A DNA stretch of 61,694 nt, filler included, from Cystobasidiomycetes sp. EMM_F5 (Eukaryota): assembly GCA_051047955.1 (NCBI GenBank). It is 4 parts of 4 records of this genome, joined end to end, with 100 filler letters (N's around TTAATTAATTAA, not from the genome) between each part and the next. Parts side by side here need not be neighbours in the genome. Positions count along the whole stretch, not along the records: positions 52,043 to 61,694 come from JBPGPT010000077.1; 3 more parts are not named here. One strand, given 5' to 3'. Position 1 is the first letter of the stretch; each line of letters starts with the position of its first letter. The position numbers and the translations under genes are program-made. Below are positions 13,500 to 61,694 of this stretch, one piece after another. Under the pieces are notes generated by a model. That model did no database searches. It had not been told where the DNA came from and saw only the letters and a program-made list of their open reading frames with translations.

Positions 13500-16400
13500 T
13501 TAGATTCCAAATGCATGACATACATCGTCGAGAAGAGTGTAGACGAGATGCTGATTGAGTCGCCGATTTTGCATGACAGAGAAAATTCGACGCGCTCCAC
13601 TTCGGGCGTTGGAGCGCCCAATAAAGCTGGCCGCTATATCCGGCATCAGATGAGTGAGTTTTCGGTAGGCAGACTCGCGTGTCTGCAGTTTTTCTTCAAG
13701 CGACCGCGGCGGTGTCGAGGCGCGCAGCTTTCCGTCCGGGTAGAGGAGGTCACTTAGCATCTCGATGTGTGGCAATAGCGCGTCTCCAGCCAAGCTCAGC
13801 GTAATGGCTTCGCGGAATTTCCTCTCAATCGTGCCACCCAGAACTTGTTGTAGAATGATGATGATGGCTTGACGACGCAGCCAACTGCTTTTATCTTTGA
13901 GGTCAAACACCTCCACAAGCAAATTGGCAATGGGCGCTGTGAAAGAGGTAAGCCCTTCTGAATCTGCCGATCGCAAAGACCCTGTTGGCCCCGAAGATAA
14001 CAGGTCTAGGGTCGCTCCGTTGTCGAACGAAACATCAGCCGACGACGTAGCGATGCTCTTGATCGACGCGGATTCGCTACCACCCGGTGACTGAGAAGAG
14101 GCGATGACATCTTCGCTACTCAAGGCATAAGCCGCGGCAGTAGACGCAAAGTCGGCTGCCTGCTGACTCAGCCGCATGATCATAGCATCGAGCATCGGCG
14201 GACCTCCGAAGACGTCGTCCATGCCGGTTGTTACTGACTGTAGGAGGTTGCGAATCAGACCTTGTCCTGGAATAATCTCCGCCGCTGCGGAAAGTGAAGA
14301 GGCTAGAAGCGATTCCCTCGGAGCGATAGAAACATTCTGCTGGGACAGGAAGCTGCGTAGCTCTTTTGCTTCAAGGGCTGCAGGGATGGAGAGCAGCAAT
14401 CGAAGATATTTCTCGAGGCCGACTTGCCGTTGCTGAAGGAAGGTATGACTCATTGAGGCAACAAGCCTTTTCTGCGGAAGTTCCAGATTTCGTACTGCTG
14501 GTATCGCTTCCTTCAGTGCTGCGTGTAGAGTGACAAATTCGCTAAAGCGTCTGGTCACAAGCCAGCCTGCAATAGTAGTCTTGCCGTCGTCCGCTAGTCT
14601 GTGCACCTCCACTAGATACAGAGCGAAATTTTTTCCTTGAGCCTGACCCACCGACGTTCCGACGATAGCCACAGACGTCCGGTTGGGGAGAAAACGGTCA
14701 TCTCCATTCATGCTGTCCTGCTGACGTTGCTGATATTCAAGGTCCTTCATCTCGCGATGTAGGGCATCAAGCGACTTGTGCAGAATCTTCAGCTCATTTT
14801 CACCGCCGGAGTGCGTGGCCTTCACTACGAGCGCTCGTATCACGACCTCTTGGCTGCCCAGCTCCTGAAGTCTGTGTGCAATGTTGTCTTTGTTCGTCGC
14901 TTTAGGAGGCTTGATGACAGCCGACTCGCGGACATTGTTGGTATCATCAGTGTCGTAGCCTTCGACACTGACAGCCGAAGCCCTCCGCAATGGATGTCCT
15001 AGAGTGTCAACGCTTGCTTTGAAGTGTACCTCAGGGCTGGATTCTAGCGACGCGTCTGCTGACACCGATGCACTTTGACTCGGCGTGAATCGATCCGCTG
15101 CCGTGGCATCTGTGGAGCCGGGCACGAACGATGCTTTCGGAATGCGTGAGCTAGAATGAGAATCATTCTCTTCGGCTAGAATGGAAGAAAGAGCGTCTTG
15201 AATGGCAGTAATGGTTGCGAGTTGGTCCAAATCGTCAGGTTCGTCAGGCGTCGGTACATCCAGTACACCGGTATCACTTGCTCGCACAGGCGTTTTCTCG
15301 TCGGAAAACAATGGTGTCCGGACGGCCTCAGATGTCTCAGCTGACGTAGATCCCGTCAAAAAGGTCAGCTCATTCGACTTGGACAAGTCGAGTTTGATAG
15401 GCGTCTCTGACACTTTGCTACGATGGCCACGAGACTGTTCTATGGAAATACTCGATCCAGCCCGATGCGTATGACCAGGCCTTGCAGCGAACCCTACGCC
15501 GGATGATTTTGACGGAGTAGAGCTTGGGAGAAGCGGCGTACTTGTCGCCCGACCGTTCAGGTGAGGCCGGGACAGATCAAGCCTACGCAATTGATCCGCG
15601 CTGATTCCCGTTTGGATGGTTTGAGCAGGCAAATCTGCGATTGCTTTGACATACAGCTCGCTGCGCTGGAAGGCTGGCCAATCTGTTTCAGACATGTTAT
15701 CCAGTACGTGTTGTTGGGCCGCGAAAATTTTCTGACGAGTACTAAAGTACACATCCGCTGACATCGGTTGCGACGGAGCCGTCTTCATGGCCAGACAAAC
15801 GTTCTGCAGCGCCGTTATGAGGTGGATGGGGACTACACCAGATGGCATGTTTGGTGATTGAAGGTAGACCGTCAAGAGTAGTTCCAGGTCATCTCGTAAA
15901 GTGTAGGAAGCAGCAACACTGGGTTGCGTACTCTTGGCGTAGAAAGACACGTTGGGCGTATCAATTAATGGGTCCTTCAGCCCTTCCACTGTGAGGTAGA
16001 ATTGTACAAGCATTGATCGGCTGCGACGATCCAGATATTCCATGAAGAACGATAAAGCGCCCGGATGCTGCAGGATATCCAACAGCGTCGTACTACCTCC
16101 CAGCGATGGAGGTATAGCGCTGTCTCCGCCTAAACTTGTTATTCGTTGATTCACAGCCTGCTTTGCAGTAGCTAACCGATCAATGTATTTGACGATTGTA
16201 TCTTTCGATTCATTCGAAAAGGCTGATGATGCAGAATGGTTGGCCTAAGGTTGAAACATGACATACTACACCTACCATCCGGCTGCTTGGCTTTGCGAAG
16301 GCTACTTTCGATGTCATTGCGAATTCGTTTAGCTTCCAAAAGGCTGGTCAGACGACCGAGATAGCGGATATAGCTATCAAATTGTTTTCCCGAACTCCTT

Positions 16401-17524
16401 ATCGAGATATCCTCGTTTCGCTTGGGCCCTTTGGCTGTCTTCGTCGGACTTGCAGAGCCAGTAGTCAACGTCTTGGCATCAAGGGCGGCACGGAGCTTAT
16501 TGACCATACGCTGCTCTCTGATGACAATGCCAGCCTTCTCATCGAGTAGCTTGTTCCACAGGTCCGGATCCGTCAAAGTTTCGATAACCGGTCGAATGAC
16601 TGCACATGCTACAATCTCCATTGCCACGACGTTCACTGCAGACGAGCCACCCTCCCTTTTAGGCATGACGAGAGGCAAAATATCGCCGATAAGCTGTCGG
16701 AGGTGTTTCTCTTCGCTCGGACGGGAATTCAAGCTGGCATCGCTGACAGCAGCGTGCAGTCCTTTCGTTCCCAACAAGGCAGCATACCTATTAGATAGGA
16801 GAAGATCAAAGTCTTCGCCGTAAGGCGTGGCATTGTACTGCTTCCGTCCGGGGTGTAACGTTTTCAAACGAGGTTCTGAGAATTGTGCATCTGTATTTTC
16901 CCCGTTAAGCGAATCGCTAGACACTTCCATCAATGACCGTTGAGCTTCTTGAAACAGCTGCAAATGCTTCGTGACTTTCGGAAGAATGATTGAGACTCCC
17001 AACGTTGCGAAATCCACATTCATCAGCCGTTGGCGGATGTTGACTGCGACATCGCGCACGCAATGCTCGACTGCCAACTGGAAGGAGCGATTCGTCGGCG
17101 AAATGGACTTTGTGTACCAATCGTCCAGATGATTGCTGAAGATCGTCTCGAGTAGCTTGTCTATGGCTACTGATACAGCTGGCGACGTCGGATGCAGCGG
17201 GGTACGAAACGAAATGTCAGACGACGCTTGTTTGACCTTGCTTCTCAGACGCTCTAGCTGTTGCGGAGTGGCTATGCAAAGGAGCGGCACAATGGGATCA
17301 TGTGTGGCTCCGCTTTGGCCTTGCGCGCCTAGATAATGATTACTGCGGTATGCAGCGCCATACGAAACTGCGAGGTGGAGAACTAAACTTCCAAGAACAG
17401 CCAGCACGAGATATACGGGCGCTAATAGCAGCGTTAATAGCGTTCTGGGATACAGAACCGTAATGGATGCCGATATGGCAACGATAGCCGACCATGACCT
17501 CCAGTCGAGCCGGAGCTTGAGCAT
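13500..17524 (-). CDS. MDM1: PXA-RGS-PX-PXC sorting nexin (Mdm1/SNX13/SNX14-like)
   Basis: N-terminal TM hairpin; PXA (HLDDWYTKSISP...TLTDPDLWN); RGS (LSFFMEYLDRRSRSMLVQFYL); PX (VTRRFSEFVTLHAALK..LPQKR); Nexin_C (WLRRQAIIIILQQVLGGTIERKFRE...MQNRRLNQHLVY). Confidence 0.9.
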
Positions 17525-17705
17525 AGCAGCATGCTTGGGATATTGTTGCAGAAACCTATTTCATATTGTGCATAGTAGACGCAATACAACACATGGACAG
17601 CGTCAAAGCATGTCTCAGACCGAGGATGATGATCGACACTGCCAAACGTCAAGCTGGGACTCGCATGTTGTACACAAGCCAACCCGACCATTCGCATCCT
17701 GCACA

Positions 17706-21548: not shown

Positions 21549-21648
21549 NNNNNNNNNNNNNNNNNNNNNNNNNNNNNNNNNNNNNNNNNNNNTTAATTAA
21601 TTAANNNNNNNNNNNNNNNNNNNNNNNNNNNNNNNNNNNNNNNNNNNN
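21549..21648. other. Artificial contig linker
   Basis: N44 + TTAATTAATTAA (stops in all six frames) + N44. Confidence 0.99.
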
Positions 21649-24565: not shown

Positions 24566-25060
24566 CTACGTCGGAAGCGTCTCGTGCAGCCAGGCGAAGG
24601 CCTGGTCATCAAGGACCCCGCTTGCTCCGGGTTCTTGTTCGAAAATATCGTTAAGCATAGCGTTCGAGAATTCGAAACTCCAATTCAGGTCCGGATCCAT
24701 GGTGTATCCGGCAGCAAGAGATGATGGAAGAGCAGCTTCTGGCAATGGACTGGCACGGCGTAGGCTTTGCGTTGAACTAAGTCCTGAGAAATCTGTGGTT
24801 GTGAGGGTCGATGCAGGAACGGCATTATTACCAAAAGTGGCTTTCTGCGACCACATACCAGTCGCTTCGTCCGAGATCGGTGTGTGATTATCCAGTGATT
24901 TGAATGCTGTTCGGAACCAAGAGGCCACTGGCCGGACTTGTGAGAGTTCTTTTGCTGCAAGACCGCATATGGCCAGGCGATGTCGCGACAACTCGCGAAG
25001 AGTTGCATTCGAAGAAAGACGCTCTGACAGATGTTGAGCCATGGCACTAAATAAACAAGT
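24566..25060 (-). pseudogene. Orphan last exon of a paralog of the Zn2Cys6 factor at 33737-36554
   Basis: TCLFSAMAQHLSERLSSNATLRELSRHRLAICGLAAKELSQVRPVASWFRTAF...FAWLHETLPT matches 33737-34222. An in-frame stop lies just upstream and no other exons are present. Confidence 0.85.
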
Positions 25061-33736: not shown

Positions 33737-36554
33737 CTACGCTGCCAAGGTCTCGTGAAGCCACGCAAAGGCTTCATCGTCCAGCTCTCCGCTTGTCCCA
33801 GGTTGGGAGTCGAAGATATCGCTGAGCATGGCGTTCGAGAATTCAAAACTCCAGTCCAGATCCGTGTCCAGTGGATACGCAACAGCGAGGGATTGCGGTG
33901 CGGTAGGCTCTGCCAGGGCGTTTGGACAAAGTAGGGCATCCGAAGCATTTTGTTCCAGAAACGCTGACTCGAATGCAGTCGACGTGATCATTTTGTCGCC
34001 GGTGATCTTTTGCGAAGATGTCCCTGGCCCTTCGTCAGAGATGGGTGTTTGGTTATCCAGAGTTTGGAATGCCGTTCTGAACCAGGAAGCTACTGGACGG
34101 ACTTGCGACAACTCTTTCGCTGCAAGCCCGCATATTGCAAGGCGATGTCGTGACAACTCTCGTAAAGTCGCGTTAATAGACAACCGCTCAGATAGATGCA
34201 TAGACATTGCAGCGAAGAGCGCGGTAACACTATTAGCATCATCTCATTGGAATCCGGTGGTATTCAGAGTTTACGTCCTGTGCTTACCAGAATTGAGGAA
34301 CTTTACCGACATTTCCCTTCGTGAGCAGATCTAGACAGATCGTTGCTCTGTCAGATCAGCTATTTCGGGTCAAACGAGCGTTGCTCTGCATACCTTCGAA
34401 AAGGTGGGTTGCCGCTAGCGCTGACTGAGATGCCACAGTATCCGCCGGTTCAGTTGCGCTACCAGTGGATTGGCGAAACAGGTGAATAACCCAACAGCTT
34501 TACGGATGTCAGCATGGCCAGCAATGTAGGTTTAACCGCTCAGCTTTCGGCTAGCTCACTGGAAAGACAGGTGTAAAAACGCTGCGAAGAGGTTACCCGA
34601 GGTGTTTATGGTCGATAACGAAACCGGCAGGTCGCGCCTCCAATCGAGTAACGACTGGTAGCACGCTGCTTGCTGTAATAGTCCATAATCTTTTGCTGAA
34701 GCCAATCGGCACTTTACTATCTGCGTGACTGGGAAGAGTATAAGATCTCGCATGATTTGTTGAGGCAGATACTCACTGAGATGCGCCAGCTGCACCGATG
34801 CAAAAAACACTTCGTACTCCTCCTGTCCCTCGAAGTCTTGCCGCTGAGGCATCTCAACGTCAACAAAATCGTCATTGATGCGATACGGGCGTCCTGTGCC
34901 AGCTGCAGAATGCCTATCCCGAATATACACTGCCCACCACACTCGCCTCCAATATTGCCGATCTTCTTCAACGATTTTTGATGAGACGGTGGACTTGTGC
35001 ATACCGAGCGATTGAGCTGAACACGATGCACGAGCAGCCCACATATAGCTGTCCTAGTTTGATGCATCGACTTTAGTACAGACACGCGTTGTAGACTGTT
35101 CACACCTACTTCTCCGTCACTGGACACCTGCGAGATTAAAAACTCGAATATGATGACCAAAATCTTGTCTCGTTCGTACTTTGCATTGTATAATGCCTTC
35201 CCACGCTTCGCGAATGATCGCAACGCCTCGAATCGGTTCGCGAACCCGGCATGTTCTATGTCCTCCGAGGAGCATAAAGTGCAACCAACGTATAGCATTC
35301 CCCAGAGCAGTAGGAGAGGGATGGAGCCGGAAAGCACGTTTACGTACTTGTGCATGAAAGTCGCGCGCGCGATGATGGGATAATTGGGATGAAAGTATTG
35401 GAAATAGGCTGAAATCATGTTATCAAGAACGTGTTTCGGCGGCAAGACGAAACAGCCCATATCGGCAAGATACTGAGCTTCTGCTATGTCTTGTTTATTT
35501 GCGGGAGTCGACGTTGATCGCAATAGGGCGTTCATACCAGCCGGGCCGGGGAAATGCTCTCGCCGGGTCAAGCCAAGAGTTGCACCTGCACGCTGGTCCC
35601 ATTTGTGTCGAAGAATGTATGATAGTGTGAAGAGGTCGCTCGCATATGTAACGTCGTGCGCATCGTGCGTGGACTCGATGTCATGCCTTTCGAGCTGCAT
35701 GAGATCTGTCCAAGCATTGGTTGTGTCGGACTCCCTAGCCGGAGTCGTCTCGGCGAGTAAATTAGAGTCACTGTGTTTGACGAAAGCCATCAGATACTTG
35801 GCATGAAACGCTTGCCCAACCCTCACGCTCGACAACCCGACGCAGATCTCGTCGCGAAAGAGGATTGAGGCATAGGGAGCATAGCCTGAATACCAAGATT
35901 CTCGTCCGACGGAGTTGTCAGTCTGGCCGGGTCGTTGGGATTGTCCAGCATGGATCCGATGAGTTGACCGATGTCCACTGATGGATTGTCGGTAGCCATG
36001 ATAGTAGCGCTTCCAACAGGCTCCGAGTACGTTGTCCACACGGGAGGTACATTGCCAACACTTTGAGCCTCTGTGCCGTTGCCAGCGAGAGGTTGCGTGA
36101 TTTGAGCCCCGCCGCGGTTTTCGCCTTCCCCAGTGCGGCGACTTGCTTGCGGCGATATGCCTTTGAGGTTAGACTTCATCTTGCTCCGGTCATATCTGAA
36201 CAGCCGACGTGCGCAGAGTGTCAGCCTGCGACTGCCGCGTCGTTTCCGCGCCCGCTCCTCACTTTCCACGCCGACTCTGGACCAGCTCGCAGCTTCTCCC
36301 AGCAGCCTGGCAACGACTGCAAGGCAATCCATGCGATTTTGCATCGCATTTCTGGATACGTATGCATCACATCAGCTGCTGTTGTGCACATCACGTCATT
36401 GCAAAGTCCCTTCACTCACAGTCTTGCGCTTATTGCATTCCGTACAAGCCAATCCTGCTCGAGCAGCAGACCGCTTCACGCTTGACGGAGTCGCTGTACC
36501 GGCGGCACTTTCACTTGCAGTATCTGATGCGTCGACCACGGGAATGAGCTCCAT
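33737..36554 (-). CDS. Zn2Cys6 transcription factor with Fungal_trans domain (Ctf1/FarA-like)
   Basis: Spliced CTECNKRKT|KCDAKSHGLPCSRCQAAGRSC; YFQYFHPNYPII; KRGKALYNAKYERDK; RRVWWAVYIRDRHSAAGTGRPYRINDDFVDVEM. Confidence 0.9.
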
Positions 36555-36748: not shown

Positions 36749-36848
36749 NNNNNNNNNNNNNNNNNNNNNNNNNNNNNNNNNNNNNNNNNNNNTTAATTAA
36801 TTAANNNNNNNNNNNNNNNNNNNNNNNNNNNNNNNNNNNNNNNNNNNN
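36749..36848. other. Artificial contig linker
   Basis: N44-TTAATTAATTAA-N44. Confidence 0.99.
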
Positions 36849-37102
36849 AGTATCAGTCCAGTTCGGCCAAGGCAGCCCGAATCTTCTAGCCAAGCATCCT
36901 TCATCAGTCTCGACCATTCTCAAAATCCAAGCCCCTCATCCATTTCGTTTAGAGCGGACTCGTCCCTGCAAAACAGGTGATGCTTATAACAATTCGAATC
37001 AGCGTAGTCACACACACTCCCATGTTTGCACGAGGGACGGGAACGTCCACAGCAACGGCAGCACTCGTACAAGGAAGTTTGTTGACAAAGCTAGCGGAAC
37101 GC
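36849..37102 (+). repeat. Inverted repeat, left copy (254 bp, cut by contig end)
   Basis: Reverse complement of 51689-51942 with 6 substitutions and no indels (hand alignment). Confidence 0.97.
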
Positions 37103-48773: not shown

Positions 48774-50211
48774 ATGGGACCCCTCACCCAGCCTGACGGT
48801 GTCCCCGCAGTCGAGATCTTGCAGAATCCGGGAACCGCTGACGAACTGGCCTCAAGCCTGAAGGAGCTCAATGTAGAGCCCTTATGGTAATTCTCTGGTG
48901 CCAATCTGGGCACGGCAACGGCGAAAAGCGGCTAATCAACCATTGTGTACTCGTACAGGCTGAAAATGACTAAACTCAATCCTCCGCTGCCTAATCCTAA
49001 AACGACTCCCTTCCTTTGGAAATACGATAAACTGCGCCCTGCCCTTCTCAAAGCTGGAAAGCTCGTCTCCGAAAAGCAAGCCGAACGACGCGTTTTGATG
49101 CTCATCAATCCCAGTGGAGGTGAGAGTGGATCGTACAAGTTGCAGACGCCGCAGTGCCAATGCTTTAGCGGTTTGTTGTTTCAGAAGCGCCTCAAACGAC
49201 CGATACTCTCTACGCCGGAATGCAGCTCGTCATGCCCGGGGAGACAGCGCCCGCTCACAGACATGCCGCCTTTGCTCTTCGCTTCATTATCGAAGGCAAC
49301 GGCGGCTTTACCGCTGTGCAGGGCAGGCGATTCGCAATGGAGCGGGGCGATGTGATTTTGACTCCAACATGGGATTACCGTCAGAGCTTGTTTGCTTGTA
49401 GGGTATCATCAAGCTGACTTCTGCAAAGCAGACGACCATGGCTCCAAAGGCGACACGCCCATGCTGTGGCTCGACGGACTCGACCTGCCGCAGTGGCAGG
49501 TGCGTCTGAAATATGCTTGCAGAGTGACGGGCTGCACCTCTGCTAACTCACACTGGCTTGTACAGCACTTTCCCTGTCATTTCGTGCAACACTATGCAGA
49601 GGATCGCTAGTAAGTAATCGCAAGCTTCAATCAAGTGGAACGCTAATCTGAAATCTTGCAGTCCTGCCGAGGATGTTACCACTCACCCTACCCTGTTTCC
49701 TTGGAAAGCCACGCAGCTAGCTCTCGATCAGATCTCTGACGATTGGGCCGTGTACCGCTACCGAGGATCGCCTGAACACGGCGCCTCCCACACTGGAGAG
49801 GTCAGTAAAGTCATCGGCGCACAGGCAGAGCGTATACGCGCTGGCAAGGCGTCAGGTCCGCCTCGGCAGGAGACTTTATCGATGGTATACCACGTTGTCG
49901 ATGGCGAGGTAAGTCATATAGCCACCGAGAAAGACCGCTTGAGTCTGATGACTGTCGTGAAGGGCGCGTCGAAGATCGGTGAAGAGACATTCACTTGGAA
50001 GAAGGGCGATACTTTCTGCATCCCGAGCTGGTATCCGTATCAGGTCGGTTCGCCGTGTAGGAAAGACATCGGAGATAGTTGGCTGACCCCGAATTTTCAG
50101 CACTTCGCTGGCGAACAGTCAGATTGCTATCTGTACCGCTTCGATGACTATCCTATGATCTCGTCTCTGGGCTTCTACCGGACTTCGTCAGAGCGATGGT
50201 ATGAGAAGTAG
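48774..50211 (+). CDS. Gentisate 1,2-dioxygenase (bicupin)
   Basis: [65 protein letters not shown], and second cupin [12 protein letters not shown]. Confidence 0.95.
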
Positions 50212-50663
50212 CGTGAATGATGGCACTTAATGTAGGTCAAGAACAGTCAGATCTGTGTTGAGAAATTAAGTTTGTTGTCATCTACACCAACTTGAACTTC
50301 TGATAGCATCAAAGCTGATTGCCGATGCTGCCCCCATTTGCAAGCGCTATGAAGTGGCATAGTATGAACAACAGCAGTGGGCAGGCTGCGCGAAGGAGCT
50401 AATAGACGTTTGCAGAGCGGGTGTCACGTTGTTAGGAGGCACCAACTGCGTTCCTCTCAGTCCGTCGCCATACTAGAGCGGGGGCACCATGGGCAGTGGT
50501 GAAGGAGATTCATCGGCCAGGCTCATAGGTGTGCGTGCGCGTTGCCACCCCTTCACGCGCCTTCAAGCAGGCAGACGGTTTGACGCTTCGGACAGCTCTG
50601 GCCAAGCGCTTTAAAGGTCACAATCGAGTCAATTGAGTCAGGTCTTTCTGAAAAACTTTACTT

Positions 50664-51941
50664 TTAGGAATTCTGCTGCCATGGGATGGATCTGCATTCT
50701 GATGCCGTGGAATGGTTACACATGCGTCGGAAATCGACTAGCCTGACTTTTCCCGATGATGGGCCCCTGCGTATTCTGGCAGTTAGCGCGAGGAGGTGTG
50801 TTTTCCTGTTGAAGGGGAGCCTGGGACATCGGATGAAGTCACATTGCATCTCGTAAGGTTCTCTGATGGCAACGGTGGATGATGCCTCCTGCAAACAAGG
50901 CAAGGAACTTTTGATGCTACGAATATGTAGAAGACAGCAACCGTGCTGTACGGATAAGTTGAAATTGACGAGCGACTTTGGAAGCGCTGAAATGAAGCCG
51001 TGATTTGCTGGCGCGGTAAGAGATCGCAGGTTTGGTGCTCGCAGAAAGAGCTTCTGCCAATACGCTTCATCGTCTTCCAACACCCAGCCCTGCAGAACTA
51101 ATTCTTCAATGTTCTTTCCAGCAACGACCAGAATATGGGCGAGCCAGAAGCTGTTCATGCGTCGCAGTACAACCCGTACTAAATTGCGTCCAGTGATCAG
51201 GTGATCGATACTGTTGAGCCCGGCACCACCGCAGCCATCCAACTCCAGGCTTTGCAGAAATGGTAAGGAGGGTCGCGTTTGGAGCATGGCGAGTTGGCGG
51301 TCCCCGCCACGGATGACGAGGTCGATAATTGCAGGAAAATTGGCTAGAAAATCAAGATAGAGGCCGTGCATGGGAATCGGAATAGCATTTAGGATTAAGC
51401 CCTGATCTGAAGCCGGAACTCGGCAATCTAATTGCTCGCGCATCTCAGCGAGGGATTCAGAATAGATGCCGGTCCGACTGATTAATTTGATGGAGTTTGC
51501 AAGTCTTGTTGAGTACGCCTCGCTGAACATTGTTGATACTAGGCGCAAAGTCCTGAGGCGGGAGACGCAGAGGTTATTGAGGATGATTCCGAACAAATTG
51601 GTGTTACCGAAACTTCTTGCGTATAGGTCTGTATGAGTGTTCAGCAAGGGTGCCTTGACGTCTGTCGTAACATTGGTGTCTGGAGTGGGCGTTCCGGTAG
51701 CTTTGTCAACAAACTTCCTTGTACGAGTGCTGCCGTTGCTGTGGACGTTTCCGTCCCTCGTGCAAAAATGGGAGTGTGTGTGACTACGCTGATTCGAATT
51801 GTTATAAGGATCACCTGTTTTGCAGGGACGAGTCCGCTCCAAACGAAATGGATGAGGGGCTTGGATTTTGAGAATGGTCGAGACTGTTGAAGGATGCTTG
51901 GCTAGAAGATTCGGGCTGCCTTGGCCGAACTGGACTGATAC
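50664..51941 (-). CDS. F-box/LRR-like protein, 5'-partial (frame open to contig end)
   Basis: F-box-like FGNTNLFGIILNNLCVSRLRTLRLVS; LRR-like LQSLELDGC, NIEELVLQG, PNLRSLTA. No in-frame ATG before the F-box. Confidence 0.6.
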   Translation of the reverse strand, partial: VSVQFGQGSPNLLAKHPSTVSTILKIQAPHPFRLERTRPCKTGDPYNNSNQRSHTHSHFCTRDGNVHSNGSTRTRKFVDKATGTPTPDTNVTTDVKAPLLNTHTDLYARSFGNTNLFGIILNNLCVSRLRTLRLVSTMFSEAYSTRLANSIKLISRTGIYSESLAEMREQLDCRVPASDQGLILNAIPIPMHGLYLDFLANFPAIIDLVIRGGDRQLAMLQTRPSLPFLQSLELDGCGGAGLNSIDHLITGRNLVRVVLRRMNSFWLAHILVVAGKNIEELVLQGWVLEDDEAYWQKLFLRAPNLRSLTAPANHGFISALPKSLVNFNLSVQHGCCLLHIRSIKSSLPCLQEASSTVAIREPYEMQCDFIRCPRLPFNRKTHLLALTARIRRGPSSGKVRLVDFRRMCNHSTASECRSIPWQQNS

Positions 51942-51942
51942 T
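51689..51942 (-). repeat. Inverted repeat, right copy
   Basis: Reverse complement matches 36849-37102 at 248/254 positions. Confidence 0.97.
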
Positions 51943-52042
51943 NNNNNNNNNNNNNNNNNNNNNNNNNNNNNNNNNNNNNNNNNNNNTTAATTAATTAANN
52001 NNNNNNNNNNNNNNNNNNNNNNNNNNNNNNNNNNNNNNNNNN
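51943..52042. other. Artificial contig linker
   Basis: N44-TTAATTAATTAA-N44. Confidence 0.99.
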
Positions 52043-52044
52043 GA

Positions 52045-52152
52045 CAGCCACTAGACTCCGTCCATGCCCTGGTAGACTGCGGAGCGACAGCCGACTTCAT
52101 CGACGTCGACTTCTGCGCCTTACACAACCTCTCGCAGGTCCTCAAGCCTGTT
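52045..52152 (+). mobile_element. Ty3/gypsy retrotransposon aspartic protease fragment
   Basis: QPLDSVHALVDCGATADFIDVDFCALHNLSQVLKPV matches the retropepsin ALxDxGAxxxFID motif; absent from the ORF track. Confidence 0.8.
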
Positions 52153-52302
52153 AATAAGGAATCCATTTTGTAAAAAACTCAGTATAATTTTTCTGAGAAT
52201 TTATCCGTGTAGTATGCACAAAAAGCTATCCAACGATGTGCTCCTCAAGGTTTTACACCTAAGTTTCGATTTGATACAGCGTTTCAAAACTTTCGCCACA
52301 TC

Positions 52303-52612
52303 CGAACCCTGACCTGGTCGACCCTTTCTGCCCTGACAACAGAAGGGTTAGGGCTTTTCTGTAGTCGGGGTTTCCGTTCTCAGGGTGCGACTGGTGTTCA
52401 GGGTTTGACTAAGGAATTTAAGGCAGCTTTACAATGTCAGGGTCTGCGGGGTCAGGGTCAGCAATTTTAGGGTCAGCGGCACTGCCGGCACCACAACAGC
52501 ACCAGCTGGACTTATAAGGAACGCACCTAGTAGAGCTGTCCTGAGGCTGGGTACAGACCCAGAAAAATTGATCTCAGGGTCAAGGTCAGGGTAGTGGCAC
52601 CGCCGGCACCAC
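52303..52612. repeat. Degenerate telomere-like / subterminal repeat patch
   Basis: AGGGTTAGGGCTTTT at 52344, several TCAGGG units, and a direct repeat agggt(c)agYggcacYgccggcaccac at ~52469 and ~52588. Confidence 0.6.
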
Positions 52613-55600
52613 TCGGCCAGGTCCAAGTGGCGGCAGTTATGTTTTAGTCTCGCTCCAACCAGACATGCACTGCAACATATACTGAGAATCTGGGAAATGT
52701 GTTATCCAAAGCTCGCAGGTTCTTCGCCAGATCTCGAGCGGACGTCGCGCCGTATTTCGTTTCCGCCTCAAGATCCTTTGCGCAAATAATGCCCTCAAAC
52801 CAAGACCCATACCGCATCACAACCAAGGCTGACAGAGAAGATCTGCAATAGAGACCGCCAAAGATCGCTGTAAATGTTTTGAGCGGATTGCTACAGCCTA
52901 TGAGAGTGAGTCAGTCGGCAAAAGCGTCAACATCGACGAATGCTGATATGCTCGTTTGACAGCTACTGCTTGGTCTTGAGGTCAACAAGCCTAGAGATAA
53001 CACAACCACGGCTCTATTGACTGTACTGTCGAACTCGTCTAGTAGCTTCCACTGACAATCTTACGTTTATTGGCCTTTCTCTTGCTCTCGTATATAGAAA
53101 CCTACAGTCCTCTTTCACTTTCACTATGCTTATCGTACTCTAAGCTACAACCTCTTTATTACCGATCTGCGCTATTGTATGGCTCAACATCGGAGATGTT
53201 GGCGTCGACCAGCTCACCAGATGAACAGACCGCGCGGCAAGACATCTCTGTTATCAGGGCATGCTTGTCACATGTCTCGACGCTAGGATTCAAACTATAC
53301 CCTGATGCAATCAATTCCAGCTCAAGACACGCCTCCTGAAGGTCGCACATGATCCATGGATCCCCAGTAACTTGTCTGCGAATCTAGAGCATCATCGGAG
53401 CCTTGATCTACACACAGTCTTGGATAAATTTGTTATAATTACTGAATGTTCTGAATTCGAAACCGTTCGTACGTACTGATGCCGAGTCTGCTTCTGCGCG
53501 GCGCGTCGTTTCACTTAATTTGGAAAACCTCGCGTCCCGTTGACTAATAGCCACACGGAGCCGTCTATCGTGCCTGCTCCAGACAAGATCATTGCTCAGT
53601 TGACCGCACAGGCCTACAATTCATCGCAATGTTTGGCCTCCCATCTCCACCGCTTCTCATCGTCATCGCTGCGGCACCTGGCAATCATAAGGTGAAACAA
53701 AGTGTCACACACTGCCGTCGTGACGTCAACACAGAAAGCTGATTCGGCGAGTGCTTAATGTAGGTAGCGTGGCCTTCAACGATGGCACAGGCATTCACTG
53801 CGTCTCTCTAGCCTTCGGCTCCAGGAGTCAAGGAGGCCAGTCTTCAAGAAAGTCTCTCAAGGCTAAGAGAGCTGCAAAGATTTCCACACGTACCGTGTGT
53901 CTGGCAGGTAGGCAGCGGATTTTGAGCATTGCGACTTTAATTCTGCAATATACACCCAAGCATAGGAGCCGACGAGTCTTGCCTACAGAGACGACCCATC
54001 CGTCCAATCGTCGTATCCAAGTCGTCCGAGCATCCTGCGTGAAAATCAACCGCGAAGGCCCGTGGGCTAGGTTCTTTTGCTTCTATGAAAGTAAATTGTC
54101 TCCATCCGGGGCCTGATCAGTGTCAGACGGCCTATCTATGCAGCGGTCACGGGTATGGTCCACTTGCAGCCACTCCGGGGGGCCGGCTGACAGGTTTGGG
54201 GTGAGGATTGATCCTGCTTCTGCCATCGAGTGACTGGCCACCGTCTTCAGCGCGGAACAACGCCGAGAAGGAATATACACCATATTCGAGGTGCAAAAGG
54301 CTTTCTGATGTGGTACTGACAAGAGCTTGTACAGAGACTGGCATTGACATCGAGTATCCACGGCAAGCTGCATGGCAGGGGCCAGGTTGGCATCAGCACC
54401 CCACCTCAATCAACATTATCGCTAAAATGCATGAATGTAAGTTCACTCGTACGGTAACCTGATGCATTCTGAGTCCGTATTCTTCCCAGGTCCGTATGGA
54501 ATCGTTACACGCAGTACAAATTCGTCAAGCAGATGTTCTTTTTCTGCTCAGGGCAACGGGTCGAGACCAGGTCTTGTTGAGTTTGGCTTGCACAATGTTT
54601 GTATGGAATACAATGCCGAGCAGTACTATGCCTGACGCGATCTCATCTTTTTGTGCTGTCTCATGCACAGATGCCTCTTTCTCCCGAACGCTCTTGAACT
54701 TAGTCCTCCTTGAGCGTACAAAGTCCACTCCACGGTCCGTACGGCCTCCCCTCCCACTCCTTCTCGTTGTCTTTGGCTCTTACGCCGTCTCGCGCTACTT
54801 CTTCCTTCGCATTTCTCCGGGAGATTGTTGATTGCGACAATCTCCGTGATTCCATTCGACTTGATTGTGCGCAACGCCTGGACTGCGGCCAGAATGTTCA
54901 ATTTGCAGTACAATCAACCCTTCATACAGAGCAACCCCGAAACTTCGATTGCTGTGTCTCGGTTTCGTCATGGCGACTAAGCAGTCTGCGAGTCACAAAG
55001 ACGCACAGACGATACGAGCAGGCGAAGGTTTTTTGATGGAGCTAATCAAAGGATCGGCCAGCATCAGTGTGAGTATCGTGTTGTACAAAACCTTGAGAAT
55101 CACTAACACAACTCACAACAATGTAGTCCTCACTGCGGTTCCACGAATGTTACAGCTCAATGCTTCTTTCCAGCTCGTGCATGCATGTACTACATTGTCC
55201 GAAGATCCCAACTCCACCCCTGTGCTGGCAACGCTTTACGATCTACATTGACACTCCGATGGTAAATATACTGCGACTTGCCGCCGGTCCAAGTATGGCG
55301 ATAGCTGGCTCCTTCGCATTACTCTTTGCCGGAAACGCTAGGCTGTACCCTATGTTCTCCTGGTCAGGCATTCGCGTGCTGGGGGCTGGGCCACCGGTGC
55401 TGCCGGGCTGATTCTACATTCAGGGTTGCCAAAAGTCTAGAAAGCATGCTTGCCCGGCTGCTGCAGTGCAGTGTTGGAACCTTGTCGAGCGGTTGCATGC
55501 AATATGTTGGATCAAACTACATGCGCCATCGACTGCATTGGTGATTCTCTACAAATTTTGTCAGCCAATTCCCCGAGAATCCCTCTTGCTGGCGCAGCGT

Positions 55601-58600
55601 GGCATTCACCGCCGTCGACTTAAATGCATATTCTACCTATCTTTTATCATCTATGTTTCATCTCTCCTGCCGACGCATCAATTTTCTGCTGTCCGGCGGC
55701 TGGAGAAACCGACATCGGCAACGTCCAGCTTGGGCGTTTTCAAGTGATACCAGGTGGCACTACTTCTGCCGTACAATAGTGGGGCTGCATAGTGCTCTGG
55801 TATCGCACAGTGGTGGTGTCTATCGCGAGGTGCTGGCTGCAGGATGATAACCACTCCCAGTGCAGCCGGCACAGAAGACGAGGAAATGGAGAGGCAGCCT
55901 CCTTGTTTGCTCAGATGCAGCCTCTTGCGGACAGTGCTGCTGGCGACCTCACTGCTGATTGCTCGCTTCGCGTTATCCGCTGGTTGTTGCCAACCCGCTA
56001 TCATGCGGTGTGCTGGCGTTTTCTGCAGGGAATGCAAGCGGCTGTTGATTCAGCTTCATACTTTGCGTCAAATTCGGTGCGCAACGAGCAGTTCATGTTC
56101 ACTCTGCATGGATGAAGTGCATCTGAGTATGGCAATAGATGGCACAGAACCCTTCAACCAATCTTAATCGCTCTTAAGCCCCGCTGTCAGTCCGACATAT
56201 GGTTATACGTCCTTTGCGAGACCTTCCGCTACTACACCTACCAAATCAAAGCACGCCCTATTGTGCAGTCACTACTCGCTCTACATATGCGGATCCATTT
56301 CGAGGCAAGGGCTAGGCTCGGCATTCGTAGAAGCCCGCGGATGGCGTCTCTGTCAAGATCGATATCGCTTTCTTGAACACTTGTGCGTAACTACGCAGGA
56401 TCTACTGTTGCTTAAACAGCTCGAAGCGACTGTCAATAAAGCGTTGCACGATCCGTCTACATCGGCAACCTACAAGAGGGCCGATGACAGCTGCTCACTG
56501 TATGATCAAGATCTGTAAGCCGTACACTTGGAAGATCCCGATCTTGTACTGAAGCCTTCTACCGTATTTCACCTCTCTTTCAATCCGACGGTCATAAAAG
56601 GCGACTTCGTCGGGAGTCTCAGAATGCACCAAGTGACCATTTTGCAGACCGCAGCAGTATTGCAACGAAACATACGTGCACGCTTCTCAACAAACGACTC
56701 TTGTATGTAAATTGCGGAAGCCACCTCTGGAGGTGTCATGTTACGTCCTCGGCAACTTCCGGCTGGTCAATCAAGCCGAAAGTATAGAATACGTGCGACC
56801 TTGGCCTATAGTACGTACCGTCAGTGATTGCTGATATCAGAGGGTATATCCTGAAGCTACTCGCCTTCGGTGTGTGCAGCAAGACATACACTCTGGGCAC
56901 AATGAACGCAAGGCAAGACGCAACAAAATGCGTGATGAGAATCGAAAAAACGACAGCGCCGCTCGTGCTGAAGCTCAAGTATTCTCGTTTGTCTAGGCGG
57001 TACAGGTCGAAGTAAGCCAGGTCCACCGTCAACGTTCCTCATGATGGTGCTCAACGATTGCGAGGGGAAAGAAGAAGGCCATTTTTTATTAGCATGGAAG
57101 ATGCCGCTACCTGCTCACTGAGCGTCTGGAAAGTTCTCTGCTGGAACTCCTATGAGAAATTTGTATCATATCGCTCGTACCAGGGTGAGCTTTACCTAAA
57201 ATTCCTCTGCACGTCTCCTTGCGCCGCATCTACCGGTTCGTTTCTTGACAGGGACAGTTCACTCGCTGCAAAGGACTCGCTTCGTCTGTTTGCATACCTC
57301 AGGCTGGCTGCAGCTGTCTGGCTGTCTGACTTGCTTTGACCTCCGACAAGAGCCTATCGATCTTCGAGCCCTGTAGCTGCCTCACATTTCCTCATCGCTC
57401 ACGTCAGCCGTATGGATTACTATGACACGCTGCTCTCTGGCAGTCCCTTTCCGGCCGACGTATTCGACTGGCGACTCTCCGCAAACAAGTTACGCAACGC
57501 ATTCTCCGATGTTGAGCCGAAACATCTGCCGAGAACAGTGCACTCCTGCTCGTGCGAAAAGGGCCACACCCGTAAGGGCAAAGTAAATATATCGTCTGAA
57601 CTCGTCGCGGAGATACTAGCAACAGCTCACGATTGTTTACTACTTGTCGCAAGCTGGCAATACCACTACTGTTCGCATACACATGTACTCTTACGCAACT
57701 CAAAGACTTGAGACCGCTGTCAAAGCGACTGACAAATGGAGTATACTCATGTTTTGCGATCTAATTGGGTTTGAACACGGCGGCCGCCACTCGGGAGTTC
57801 CATGTTGCTAATCCTCAAGACTCAGGCTGGGGATTGTTAGCGCGATGGCGCAACGAGAGCTGTTGCAGCAGCGGCACTCACTTCCTTGCGCCGATTCGAT
57901 TCTCTAGGATCTGCAGGCCCACTCAAGTAGATAATATCACAGGGGCAGGTGTGACCGGACGCTAACACAACGTCTGTTACGTCGTCTCTGGATACTGGCA
58001 TACTCTCCGTAATGACAACATCGAAAGCAGTATTCTTGCAGTTATGAAGTCTGAATTAATCTCGTCTAATGTATTTTCCATTGAACTGGGCAGGACTGCA
58101 ACTCAGACTACTCACACTCCGTTGAACCTCCAAACTGACCACTCCAAACCCTCAAGCGCTTTAAGTGGAAGTGCCGACACTACTCAGTATCCAAGTTGGG
58201 CTTCGATGATTCGCGCCACAACCTCGCATCATTGGAGGCCGGCATTGTGCAATTATGTCACTCGGACAAATGGATCGTCAGCTAATGCGGGCCATCCGTC
58301 AGTCTGAAAGTGGGCATCAATGGCATTCATGTCAACGATTAGGAAAAGGAAAGCTGAACGCTGGAATTGGACATAGCTTCGTACTTATTTTGGTGGCACT
58401 TTTGAGCTGCATTGGAAGTTAGAGCATAGCTGACACTGTGTCGTCTAATCGTGATCCGGGTTTGTAAATCTGAAAGGACCCACAGATAGGTTTGCCTCCT
58501 GCCGTTGAGCTTGCGACATCGCATAGTATTGGCCCTAGCGCCCGCAATCAAGGTCAAGCCGCAATCAACGTCTAGCAGCCATTTGGAGGCTGCGCGCCGA

Positions 58601-61433
58601 CCTATCATCGGCTGCCCATGGCTGCACATTTTACAGCGATCTCACAGTGAGCTGCAGTCCGTGTGGCTAAAGTAGTAGACGTGTCGCAGTCTTTAGAAGC
58701 GGATTGGAAAGACTGCTTGTTCAAGTGGTACGCAAATTGATTGTGGACATGTCTCTGCCATTAAGAAAGCTGTCGGACGGATAGCCTGCGATTAGCAAAC
58801 GGCTTCAGCGGTATTGTGCTCACGTAGCTCTAGACCAGTATCGTAGCGAAGGAGCAGGCTGAAACTGATGTTCTTAAGAGTTCAATGATAGGAATCCCCG
58901 GCATCATGCGCTCTCGGGCAAGTCTAGGCGAAGATCGGCCGGCAGGTAGAGCGCCGCTCAAATTGGCAATAGCTGTCGCTGTTGGAGATCTGCTCACAGC
59001 GTCAGAGATGTTTGTAGCATCCTCACCATGCGTAAGCGAGGGTAATATGAGTGACAGATGCTGAGGTTTTTGAAGTGTACTTCACGCTTTAGCTTTAGCT
59101 TTAGCTATCAGGGAGCCTGCATTTTGGCCACTGGTCTTCTGTGCTCAAATTTGTTCCTTGATGCTCTTCCTTGTATCATCCTGTATGCATCGATTGCAGT
59201 CTGTTGTCCTCTCCAGCTTGCGAAACCAGCGTCCATGCGTAATGGGAGCGAGGTCAGCTCGACGGGCTGCTTTTGAACGACGGTTTGCGTGTATCAAAAG
59301 CATGTATAGATGACAACAACCAAAGTTGTGGAGTACATTCAACAGCATCGAAATGCTGGATGTATCTTCCGAGCAATGGTGCGCTGTCGGCGCATTCGAC
59401 TCGCGACCATTGTGACTGTACGAGCTTGCTGCACCAGGATCATAGACTCAGACTTCGCACTGTACAGATCTACAGCAATTGTACTTCGAATCCGGACGTA
59501 TCATATTGAGTGTTGGCTGGATCACAAGACATACGAACAGGAGAAGCAGAACTTACAGCTATTACTTCAGTTCTGCAAGCCTATACCGGAAATTGAGGCA
59601 CGAAACGAGAGGCGCTATCCGTTGCAGCAGTCGGCAGCACGTTATGCACGCTCAGGCTTGCCTGTGATTCCATCTATGTCAGCCAGTTGATGCATTCAAA
59701 AGGCCAGTGAGCATTGTGCTCCCAGTACATACAGTCATCTCCGACCAGAAGCGCAGCACTGGCTGCTCAAGGCTTGGGTGGGTAGGATGTGTCTATTATG
59801 GATTGTGTATGCCTGTGGAAGGTTCGGCTCATTTGATTTTTGCAAGCCTGATTTGTGTGTCAGTACACTTATGCCAGAATCTGAATCGGAGAATGAACAG
59901 CCTCTGTGGATGTCGATCGGTACAGGTCAGCTAGATAGCTAAAGCTAACATCTTCAGGTACGGCTTATAAATGCAAGGCGTGAGTCACATGAGACACTTC
60001 TGCGAAAATGCAGCTTTCATCAAAGGTAACACGAGTCTCGATAATCAGCTGAGTGTACTTCTCGAGTGTGGCCAGTATCCAGTTGCATGACGATAGGGGC
60101 GCAAGATGTAGCCTCCATGCCATGACAGCATGCCTTGATCGTACGCAATGTTCAGGGTAAGCAGCAAAGCTGCTGTCGGCCCCATTGCGCCGCTCGCATC
60201 GTCCGTCGTTGTTTCTAGCACGTCGTACGATCCATTCCCCCCAGAAATCGTGTAGATAGAAAACCCGTTACCAAAGAATCTCGGATGCCTACAAGGATTT
60301 GTTGAGTCTGTCGCTATCCTACGCGGAAAAGCGTTAGCTATATGCTGTATGCGAAGCGCGATTAAACGCAAGATATCATTATCGCCATTGGATTCTGTGT
60401 CCTTCCAGCATTGAGCCGGACTGGAAGTCTAATCGTCGACAGATCGCCTTCGACAGATCGACAAGCGTGCCAGCCGCTAGATAAGTCATTGACGTAGCCT
60501 CACATCCGGTCAGTCTGTAGAAGCCTAGTTGCTCTCGTAGGCCACCGACGTGAGTGGTCGTCAAGCAGCCAACGCCCTTGACGGAAACGGCATGTCTGGA
60601 TCAGAAGCAGATAGGGCAGCCGCTTGGTAGCGTGCGAACTTGAAATTTTATTCTTGGTGCGAAAAGCCGTTATCTCGAATGCAGCCTGAGCGCAATACCA
60701 GCGGGAACTGATTCTCCAGACACTGCATCATCGCCGTTCTGCGCTGCCGTCAACGCAGTCATACATACGGCGCACATCTCTTGACTGAGTGTCTTAGGTA
60801 TGTCTGGCAAACTTGCCCGAGGAGAGCGACAGGTCATTCCTGACGGAGCGCAAAACGCCAGGTAAAAATAAGGCCACACCAAAGCCAATGCAGACAGCAA
60901 GTAACAAGGCACGCGCCTGGGTTTTTCCGGCGAGTACAATTGCGGACAGCTAATCTTCTTTGTCCGGACTACGCGTAGTGACCGCCATGCTCGAAAACCA
61001 GTGGCGATTGACACGTTGGGAAACAGCCAATTGTCTGTACACATTGGCTTTAGATTAGCACTTGAAGGCAGGATGATATCAATCGTTGCTCACTTAGGCG
61101 CATCCAGACAGAGTAGAGTGCAGATTGTGCTCCTGCAAGATTGGGCTCAAGTATCGAAACCATGGAACGAATATGGCGAACGAGGCAGCTGCGAGTGTAG
61201 CAATGAAGCAGCCGCAAAAATCAGCAAGGAGGGCACCCAGCTGCTTCGACGAGTACTGTCAGCTTGAGACACAGGTATCACTGACACTTGAAAAGTAACC
61301 GAATCAACCGTCATTTGTGAAATTACTTTGAAGTTCCGAAAGATCTTGACTTTGTCGGCGTTCGTACGTGTTCCTTCCGAGCGAAGTTTGGTGAGTCTTG
61401 CAGCGACGTCCGATACTGGTAAAGCTCCGTCAC

Positions 61434-61694
61434 GGTTAGTAGGGTTAGGGCTTTTATATAGTAGGGGTTAGGGTTAGGGCTTTAGTAGGGTTAGGGCTTT
61501 AGTAGGGGGTTAGGGTTAGGGTTAGTAGGGTTAGTAGGGTTAGGGTTAGGGTTAGGGTTAGGGTTAGGGTTAGGGTTAGGGGTTAGGGTTAGGGTTAGTA
61601 GGGTTAGTAGGGTTAGGGCTTTAGTAGGGTTAGGGTTAGTAGGGTTAGTAGGGTTAGTAGGGTTAGTAGGGTTAGTAGGGTTAGTAGGGTTAGT
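61434..61694 (+). repeat. Telomere with mixed units TTAGGG, TTAGTAGGG and CTTTAGTAGGG
   Basis: G-rich strand runs 5'->3' to the sequence end; the distal units are TTAGTAGGG x6. Confidence 0.97.

Follow-up and report, generated by a model that had tools for sequence, protein, structure and literature searches.

How does a single chromosome end come to be built of three different repeat units, only one of which is plain TTAGGG, and can one telomerase template account for all of them? This question is raised by the last bases of a 61,694-nucleotide stretch of DNA from the fungus Cystobasidiomycetes sp. EMM_F5, which we analyzed as a whole and refer to as the window. The original prediction placed a telomere with three units at 61434..61694, and this has been borne out by our analysis. 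A tandem G-rich array occupies positions 61436-61694 on the + strand (259 nt), and its G-rich strand runs 5' to 3' outward, up to the very last base of the window, which is the polarity of a telomere. TRF describes this array with a period of 9 (score 185) or of 6 (score 136). When the tract is cut after every G run, it resolves into 32 complete units of 6 to 17 nt followed by a residual TTAGT. These units are TTAGGG (17 copies), TTAGTAGGG (11 copies), CTTTAGTAGGG (3 copies) and a single 17-nt variant, CTTTTATATAGTAGGGG, which starts at 61451. The features on which the argument turns are the following.

61436..61694, + strand: terminal telomere tract, 32 full units plus TTAGT, as defined by the unit parse and TRF
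61451..61467, + strand: 17-nt variant unit CTTTTATATAGTAGGGG in the proximal part, after a TTAGGG, with a twin at 52358-52370
61474..61509, + strand: the 17-nt cycle TTAGGGCTTTAGTAGGG twice in tandem, with GGGGG closing the second copy
61540..61594, + strand: nine consecutive TTAGGG units, including one with GGGG
61613..61629, + strand: a further copy of the 17-nt cycle in the distal part, its start lying 178 nt into the tract of 259 nt
61636..61694, + strand: terminal block of six TTAGTAGGG units and TTAGT
52341..52372, + strand: interior telomere-like patch, matching 61438-61469 at 28 of 32 positions and including the rare variant unit
52373..52600, + strand: stretch rich in TCAGGG-like motifs adjoining the patch; [TC]AGGGT motifs cluster nowhere else in the window

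The units are strikingly uniform. All 11 of the 9-mers are identical, and the three CTTTAGTAGGG units (starts at 61480, 61497 and 61619) share the same core and differ only in the length of their G run. Because the copy at 61497 terminates in GGGGG, two of these three units are strictly clean, rather than all three as first described. The 17 TTAGGG units include one TTAGGGG, at 61576, and over-long G runs are found at three places in the tract (61464-67, 61505-09 and 61579-82). Across the whole window, TTAGTAGGG occurs 14 times, every time within the tract, and its reverse complement is never found, so the array is far beyond what chance would produce. The region 61436-61694 is thus a real, if unusual, mixed-unit telomere. 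At about 260 bp, its length falls within the range usual for fungal telomere tracts. No chromosome end is found at the left end of the window.

With A standing for the 6-mer, B for the 9-mer and C for the units that contain CTTT (the three CTTTAGTAGGG copies and the proximal variant), the order of units along the tract reads B A C A A C A C A A B B A×9 B B A C A B×6. The claim that CTTT units, including the proximal variant, always follow TTAGGG and never TTAGTAGGG is confirmed: all four are preceded by TTAGGG (at 61445, 61474, 61491 and 61613) and none by the 9-mer.

These units can be united in one sequence. A 17-nt cycle, TTAGGGCTTTAGTAGGG, as it stands at 61474-61490, yields all three units, either whole or shortened through its internal repeats. 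A full turn of the cycle is a 17-nt step, that is, TTAGGG plus CTTTAGTAGGG. TTAG occurs twice within the cycle, and a jump from one copy to the other omits 8 nt and leaves TTAGTAGGG. TAGGG also occurs twice, and a jump between its copies omits 11 nt and leaves TTAGGG. A cycle with these two shortcuts accounts for the tract, and the presence of TTAGGG before all four CTTT units is what continuous copying of the cycle requires. Expressed as the increments GGTTAG, TAGGGTTAG and GGCTTTAGTAGGGTTAG added after TTAG, a strict parse covers 225 of the 259 nt; the remaining 34 nt consist of the 17-nt variant unit and the three over-long G runs. The original prediction had formulated the same logic as a linear template with three TAG alignment sites, which is one valid cut of the 17-nt cycle. 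The tract fits other circular permutations of the cycle, or two separate templates, equally well, and it is compatible with any start and end of the template and with jumps made either at translocation or in mid-template.

The mechanism that we propose is that telomerase would walk round the 17-nt cycle on one long template of about 20 nt. Realignment via TTAG would add TTAGTAGGG, realignment via TAGGG would add TTAGGG, and an uninterrupted turn would give the 17-nt step. Here we infer that one RNA would be responsible, where its template would start and end, and that the register would be chosen at translocation. A single long template with internal repeats could well be the most economical reading of the tract, although we hold this tentatively. 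The complete reading takes the tract as a genuine telomere at a chromosome end, from a basidiomycete yeast that is Pucciniomycotina-like and whose telomerase uses one template of about 20 nt with internal repeats; we regard this as a serious possibility and give it somewhat less than an even chance. Counting against one template, the evidence comes from a single end with 32 units, and the model leaves the 17-nt variant and its interior twin unexplained.

This twin lies 9 kb inside the chromosome. On the + strand, positions 52341-52372 match the beginning of the telomere (61438-61469) at 28 of 32 positions without gaps, the two differing at 4 of 32, and this is the sole site in the window with at least 21 matches of 32. 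When the window was simulated 300 times with a first-order Markov model, the best match ranged from 18 to 22 of 32, and none of the 300 exceeded 22. The two sites have their parts in the same order, AG(T/A)AGGG, TTAGGG, CTTTT.T.TAGT.GGGG and TT, so that the interior patch carries the rare 17-nt variant (its counterpart being at 52358-52370) and not the clean 11-nt unit. It follows from the twin that the proximal 17-nt variant is not a private mutation of the telomere. The likeness begins 2 nt into the telomere tract and stops after 32 nt, with flanks that are without similarity. With telomere-type units at an internal site, 52341-52372 is a candidate interstitial telomeric sequence. The patch and the telomere start might both stem from a common template, whether in an older or a longer form or through a read-through of the kind described for vertebrate TERC-ITS, or one might have been copied from the other; either would fit.

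Could the patch itself be the active template? We rejected this candidate: its minus strand would template CTTTTCTGTAGTCGGGG, which is missing from the telomere. The minus-strand RNA fold of 52250-52480 has a z of -2.76, with 1 of 200 shuffles as good, and we do not take this as evidence. On the minus strand of this same segment, CCCTGA-like motifs lie to the left of the patch and TCAGGG-like motifs to the right, an inverted arrangement. Some 170 nt before the patch, a short open frame on the + strand (52045-52170) runs into a stop; it resembles the aspartic protease of a retroelement around its active site, and we take it to be, probably, a transposon fragment.

The twin is central to an alternative in which the CTTT units are not templated at all. 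A short template would give TTAGTAGGG and, by a slip at TAG, TTAGGG, while the CTTT units would be inherited variants from a seed like 52341-52372/61438-61469, shortened and moved by slippage or unequal exchange. This would imply a telomerase RNA without the complement of GGGCTTTAG. The diverged twin speaks for such a history since it means that this kind of sequence exists outside the current output of telomerase. So do the position of three of the four CTTT units within the first 75 nt of the tract, the adjacent 17-nt copies at 61474-61509, which resemble a tandem duplication, and the pure TTAGTAGGG of the distal 59 nt. However, a clean 17-nt step is present at 178-194 nt of the 259-nt tract, amid ordinary units, so CTTT units are not confined to the junction. 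Confinement of the variants to a fixed proximal zone had been named as an outcome that would count against the three-register idea; the CTTT units, the distal one included, rank 3, 6, 8 and 25 of 32, a proximal bias that is not significant in a rank test (p 0.19). Moreover, the three CTTTAGTAGGG copies are identical save for the length of their G runs, which is unexpected of old variants adrift when the twin has 4 mismatches in 32. Taken together, we consider inheritance of the CTTT units unlikely, although it has to be reckoned with.

The order in which units follow each other sets limits on the single-template reading as well. As a null, the 32 units were shuffled 200,000 times. Against these shuffles, every CTTT unit being preceded by TTAGGG has a p of 0.065, and every CTTT unit being followed by TTAGGG (4 of 4) has a p of 0.066. 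The rule that CTTT comes after TTAGGG, which had been put forward as a grammar, is therefore observed without exception but is statistically weak; it is compatible with the template model and not significant by itself. Having TTAGGG on both sides of all CTTT units is rarer (p 0.006, same 200,000 shuffles). When the tract is recoded as steps of 6, 9 and 17 nt, 17 of 27 transitions are self-transitions, in 11 runs (p 0.003) with lengths of 1, 1, 1, 2, 2, 2, 9, 2, 1, 1 and 6. The manner in which the 9-mer core is entered also bears on what comes after it: where a CT prefix links the core to a preceding TTAGGG, TTAGGG comes next (4 of 4), and when TTAGTAGGG is entered from TTAGGG without the prefix, the next unit is TTAGTAGGG again (3 of 3; Fisher p 0.029). 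A three-register model without memory predicts neither the clustering nor the flanks of TTAGGG on both sides, and the tract does not have the order expected of free register choice, which is the prediction of the simplest model and not a defining feature. Hence, of the claim that one template in three registers reproduces the grammar, the logic and the parse of most of the tract stand, whereas clustering and two-sided flanks fall outside it. In the single-template mechanism, the choice of register would then not be memoryless, and runs of the same unit are probably the trace of separate extension events or of an enzyme state that persists.

Such blocks are also what would be left by more than one telomerase RNA, be they paralogues, alleles or isoforms, if their templates differed and each laid down homogeneous stretches, one of TTAGGG and another of TTAGTAGGG with or without the CTTT extension. 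In support, the unit types do lie in blocks when compared with shuffled order, and in Candida tropicalis two repeat types per array are ascribed, in the account given by PMC7857110, to two telomerase RNA alleles. Two or three genes would nevertheless be required where one suffices, and the presence of TTAGGG on both flanks of the CTTT units would be left unexplained; we judge several RNAs to be rather unlikely.

We consider it very improbable that the variant units are an artefact of long-read basecalling or consensus, with a true telomere of plain TTAGGG or plain TTAGTAGGG. Nanopore basecallers are reported to miscall telomere repeats in long blocks, but the miscalls given in the report concerned, TTAAAA, CTTCTT and CCCTGG, retain the 6-nt period, and none of them is like a 3- or 5-nt insertion (10.1101/2022.01.11.475254). 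The three over-long G runs could indeed be homopolymer errors; apart from their lengths, the units are exact copies, be it the 11 9-mers or the three CTTT units with the same core. In addition, the twin at 52341, which lies in unique sequence, independently has TTAGGG-CTTTT...TAGT.GGGG.

Upkeep free of telomerase, by recombination or rolling-circle copying with the blocks as amplified segments, is the least probable explanation, one that we hardly credit: the block organization and a 30-nt pattern TTAGGG-(TTAGTAGGG)2-TTAGGG that is present twice (61516-61545 and 61589-61618) would suit it, but the tract is, at this length, an ordinary one for a fungus. Basidiomycete yeasts without telomerase do exist, but those of the Microstromatales are described in PMC13234504 as being without any TTAGGG-like repeats and as having end-specific motifs, whereas here the end consists of short TTAGGG-like repeats, 17 of them TTAGGG itself.

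A template of about 20 nt is long enough to be searched for. The predicted template sequence has no match in the window, nor does the complement of the 9-mer in any of its nine permutations. The window contains one 9-mer of 1.5 CCCTAA repeats (32169) and one TTAGGG-type 10-mer (52344), which by a rough estimate is about what chance would give. No Rfam family was found at gathering scores in the whole window, nor at E values up to 1 in 50500-54500. The 20-mer of the model, TAGGGCTTTAGTAGGGTTAG, has no match in the metagenome collection, and a scan of prokaryote genomes with a 16-mer returned 49 single matches, which we take as chance.

The tandem dimer (TTAGTAGGG)2 is found in metagenomes at no fewer than 118 loci. 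CTTTAGTAGGG is in none of the 118 loci listed. Among these listed loci, at least 24 have arrays of four or more units, one of which lies within 2 nt of the end of its locus. Those that we inspected belong to dispersed repeat families or form interior arrays; none is a comparable chromosome end. In five metagenome contigs (L004, L010, L031, L041 and L104), we observed a common dispersed repeat with conserved flanks, TATTAGGG(TTAGTAGGG)2 or 4 TTAGGGTTACCC, which is a telomere-like module within the repeat family of another organism. Three GC-rich contigs (L042, L048 and L097) have a different layout, in which (TCAGGG)n or related G-rich repeats are followed by (TTAGTAGGG)5-6 and one to three TTAGGG; in L048 and L097, (TTAGGG)2 stands between the G-rich repeats and (TTAGTAGGG)5-6. 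In L042 and L048, the array abuts a complementary C-strand repeat, forming a head-to-head junction, and L097 stops short of that point.

As for the genomic surroundings of the telomere, the gene content of the window is fungal, with a Fungal_trans domain, a P450 and a gene with PXA, PX and Nexin_C domains. The last of these is a sorting-nexin-like gene lying in two long ORFs at 13500-17560 on the - strand. The best named relative of its PXA-domain ORF is Cystobasidium minutum, with 52% identity (E 8e-112), the other 33 matches being at 25-36%. Since this ORF is closest to Cystobasidium minutum, we read the organism as a Pucciniomycotina-like basidiomycete yeast; the earlier label of basidiomycete thus has support, which comes from one protein. 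The last 9-12 kb of the window look subtelomeric. In 49618-61467, none of the 43 ORFs tested (stop to stop, 80 aa or longer) has a Pfam match at E 0.01 or better. A telomere-attached retroelement in 52373-61435 was considered and, with none of the 43 ORFs giving a Pfam match, rejected for now. Between 53724 and 58307, + strand ORFs follow one another with changes of frame and may together be a decayed or an intron-rich gene.

Elsewhere in the window, we observed several repeats. Its 264 N form three pairs of 44 N (21549-21648, 36749-36848 and 51943-52042), and a dispersed repeat is found on their flanks. Positions 36849-37102 equal 51942-51689 reversed (97.6% over 254 nt), and positions 2-59 equal 21547-21490 reversed (94.8%). 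Segments 24579-25046 and 33750-34211 are 68% identical over 472 nt and are possibly paralogous genes.

An important biological implication of a telomere in which TTAGGG is mixed with a spacer unit and a longer unit is that it would show how a telomeric motif can change without a lethal intermediate. It would also supply a long and specific string with which to look for the telomerase RNA of Pucciniomycotina, and the interior twin would be a second, independent record of past additions to a DNA end in this lineage.

The nearest mechanistic parallel is Saccharomyces cerevisiae, in which, according to PMC3584321, one template (TLC1) gives irregular repeats via several alignment registers and incomplete copying. 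What the TG1-3 repeats of that yeast share with the tract is heterogeneity arising from one template, which for the tract is our proposal. In contrast to its degenerate TG runs, the end described here has three discrete and exact units with a TTAGGG-like core, in a basidiomycete and from a template that is predicted. In Schizosaccharomyces pombe, heterogeneity is attributed to copying past the template boundary (as put in PMC7857110), and in Malassezia, alignment slippage has been proposed to lie behind new telomeric motifs (as put in PMC12506658); as these sources present them, both vary by one or a few nucleotides, whereas here the steps are of 6, 9 and 17 nt. Candida tropicalis resembles the tract in having two unit types in one array, but the units given for it in PMC7857110 differ by one nucleotide, whereas here there are 3-nt and 5-nt insertions and a third unit.

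Closest in sequence is the ascomycete Lipomyces suomiensis, whose telomere is stated in PMC6692504 to be (TTTTAGTAGGG)n. Its unit and the 11-nt CTTTAGTAGGG are alike at 10 of 11 positions (PMC6692504, for the Lipomyces unit). However, the Lipomyces array, as given there, is a tandem of a single unit, while here the ancestral TTAGGG and spacer-bearing forms coexist in one array, in a basidiomycete. The Yarrowia clade, which belongs to the deep-branching budding yeasts and so likewise to the ascomycetes, has a spacer-interrupted TTAGGG repeat, TTNNNNAGGG, and the divergence of budding-yeast telomeres is proposed, in the relevant passages of PMC7857110 and PMC12449055, to have begun when a short spacer was inserted into TTAGGG. 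TTAGTAGGG is likewise TTAGGG interrupted by a 3-nt spacer. The tract departs from the single homogeneous unit of these Saccharomycotina in having three units, and the best named relative of the PXA-domain ORF is Cystobasidium minutum. It is conceivable, though we regard it as doubtful, that a single template, about 20 nt long and bearing three alignment sites, gives TTAGGG, TTAGTAGGG and the 17-nt step, that this end is a living intermediate of "spacer insertion" in runaway yeast telomere evolution, and that the variant at the base of the tract and the twin at 52341 are fossils of an older or longer template.

Among basidiomycetes, telomeres are described, in the passages of PMC12506658, PMC7857110 and PMC12449055 that deal with them, as TTAGGG with only minor variants, and the telomerase RNAs reported in the corresponding parts of PMC9564094 and PMC12506658 are those of Ustilago relatives and Malassezia only. 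The telomerase RNA of Ustilago maydis, the reference among basidiomycetes, has, according to PMC9564094, a short template, UAACCCUAA, and TTAGGG repeats are made from it; the single-template model needs about 20 nt here, and the short Ustilago template counts against it. The patch at 52341-52372 is like the short interstitial telomeric sequences of vertebrates in being a short telomere-like insert inside a chromosome, and the vertebrate TERC-ITS described in PMC8537989 and PMC2246262 have telomerase-RNA-derived sequence beside the repeats. Within the running text of the literature covered, TTAGTAGGG, its permutations and its complement were not found as a telomere repeat, save for the (TTTTAGTAGGG)n of Lipomyces suomiensis; supplementary motif tables (PMC7857110 table 1, PMC12449055) may list closer motifs. 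Irregular telomeres made from one template and repeats bearing a spacer are already known elsewhere; here, TTAGGG and a spacer unit are mixed at a single end.
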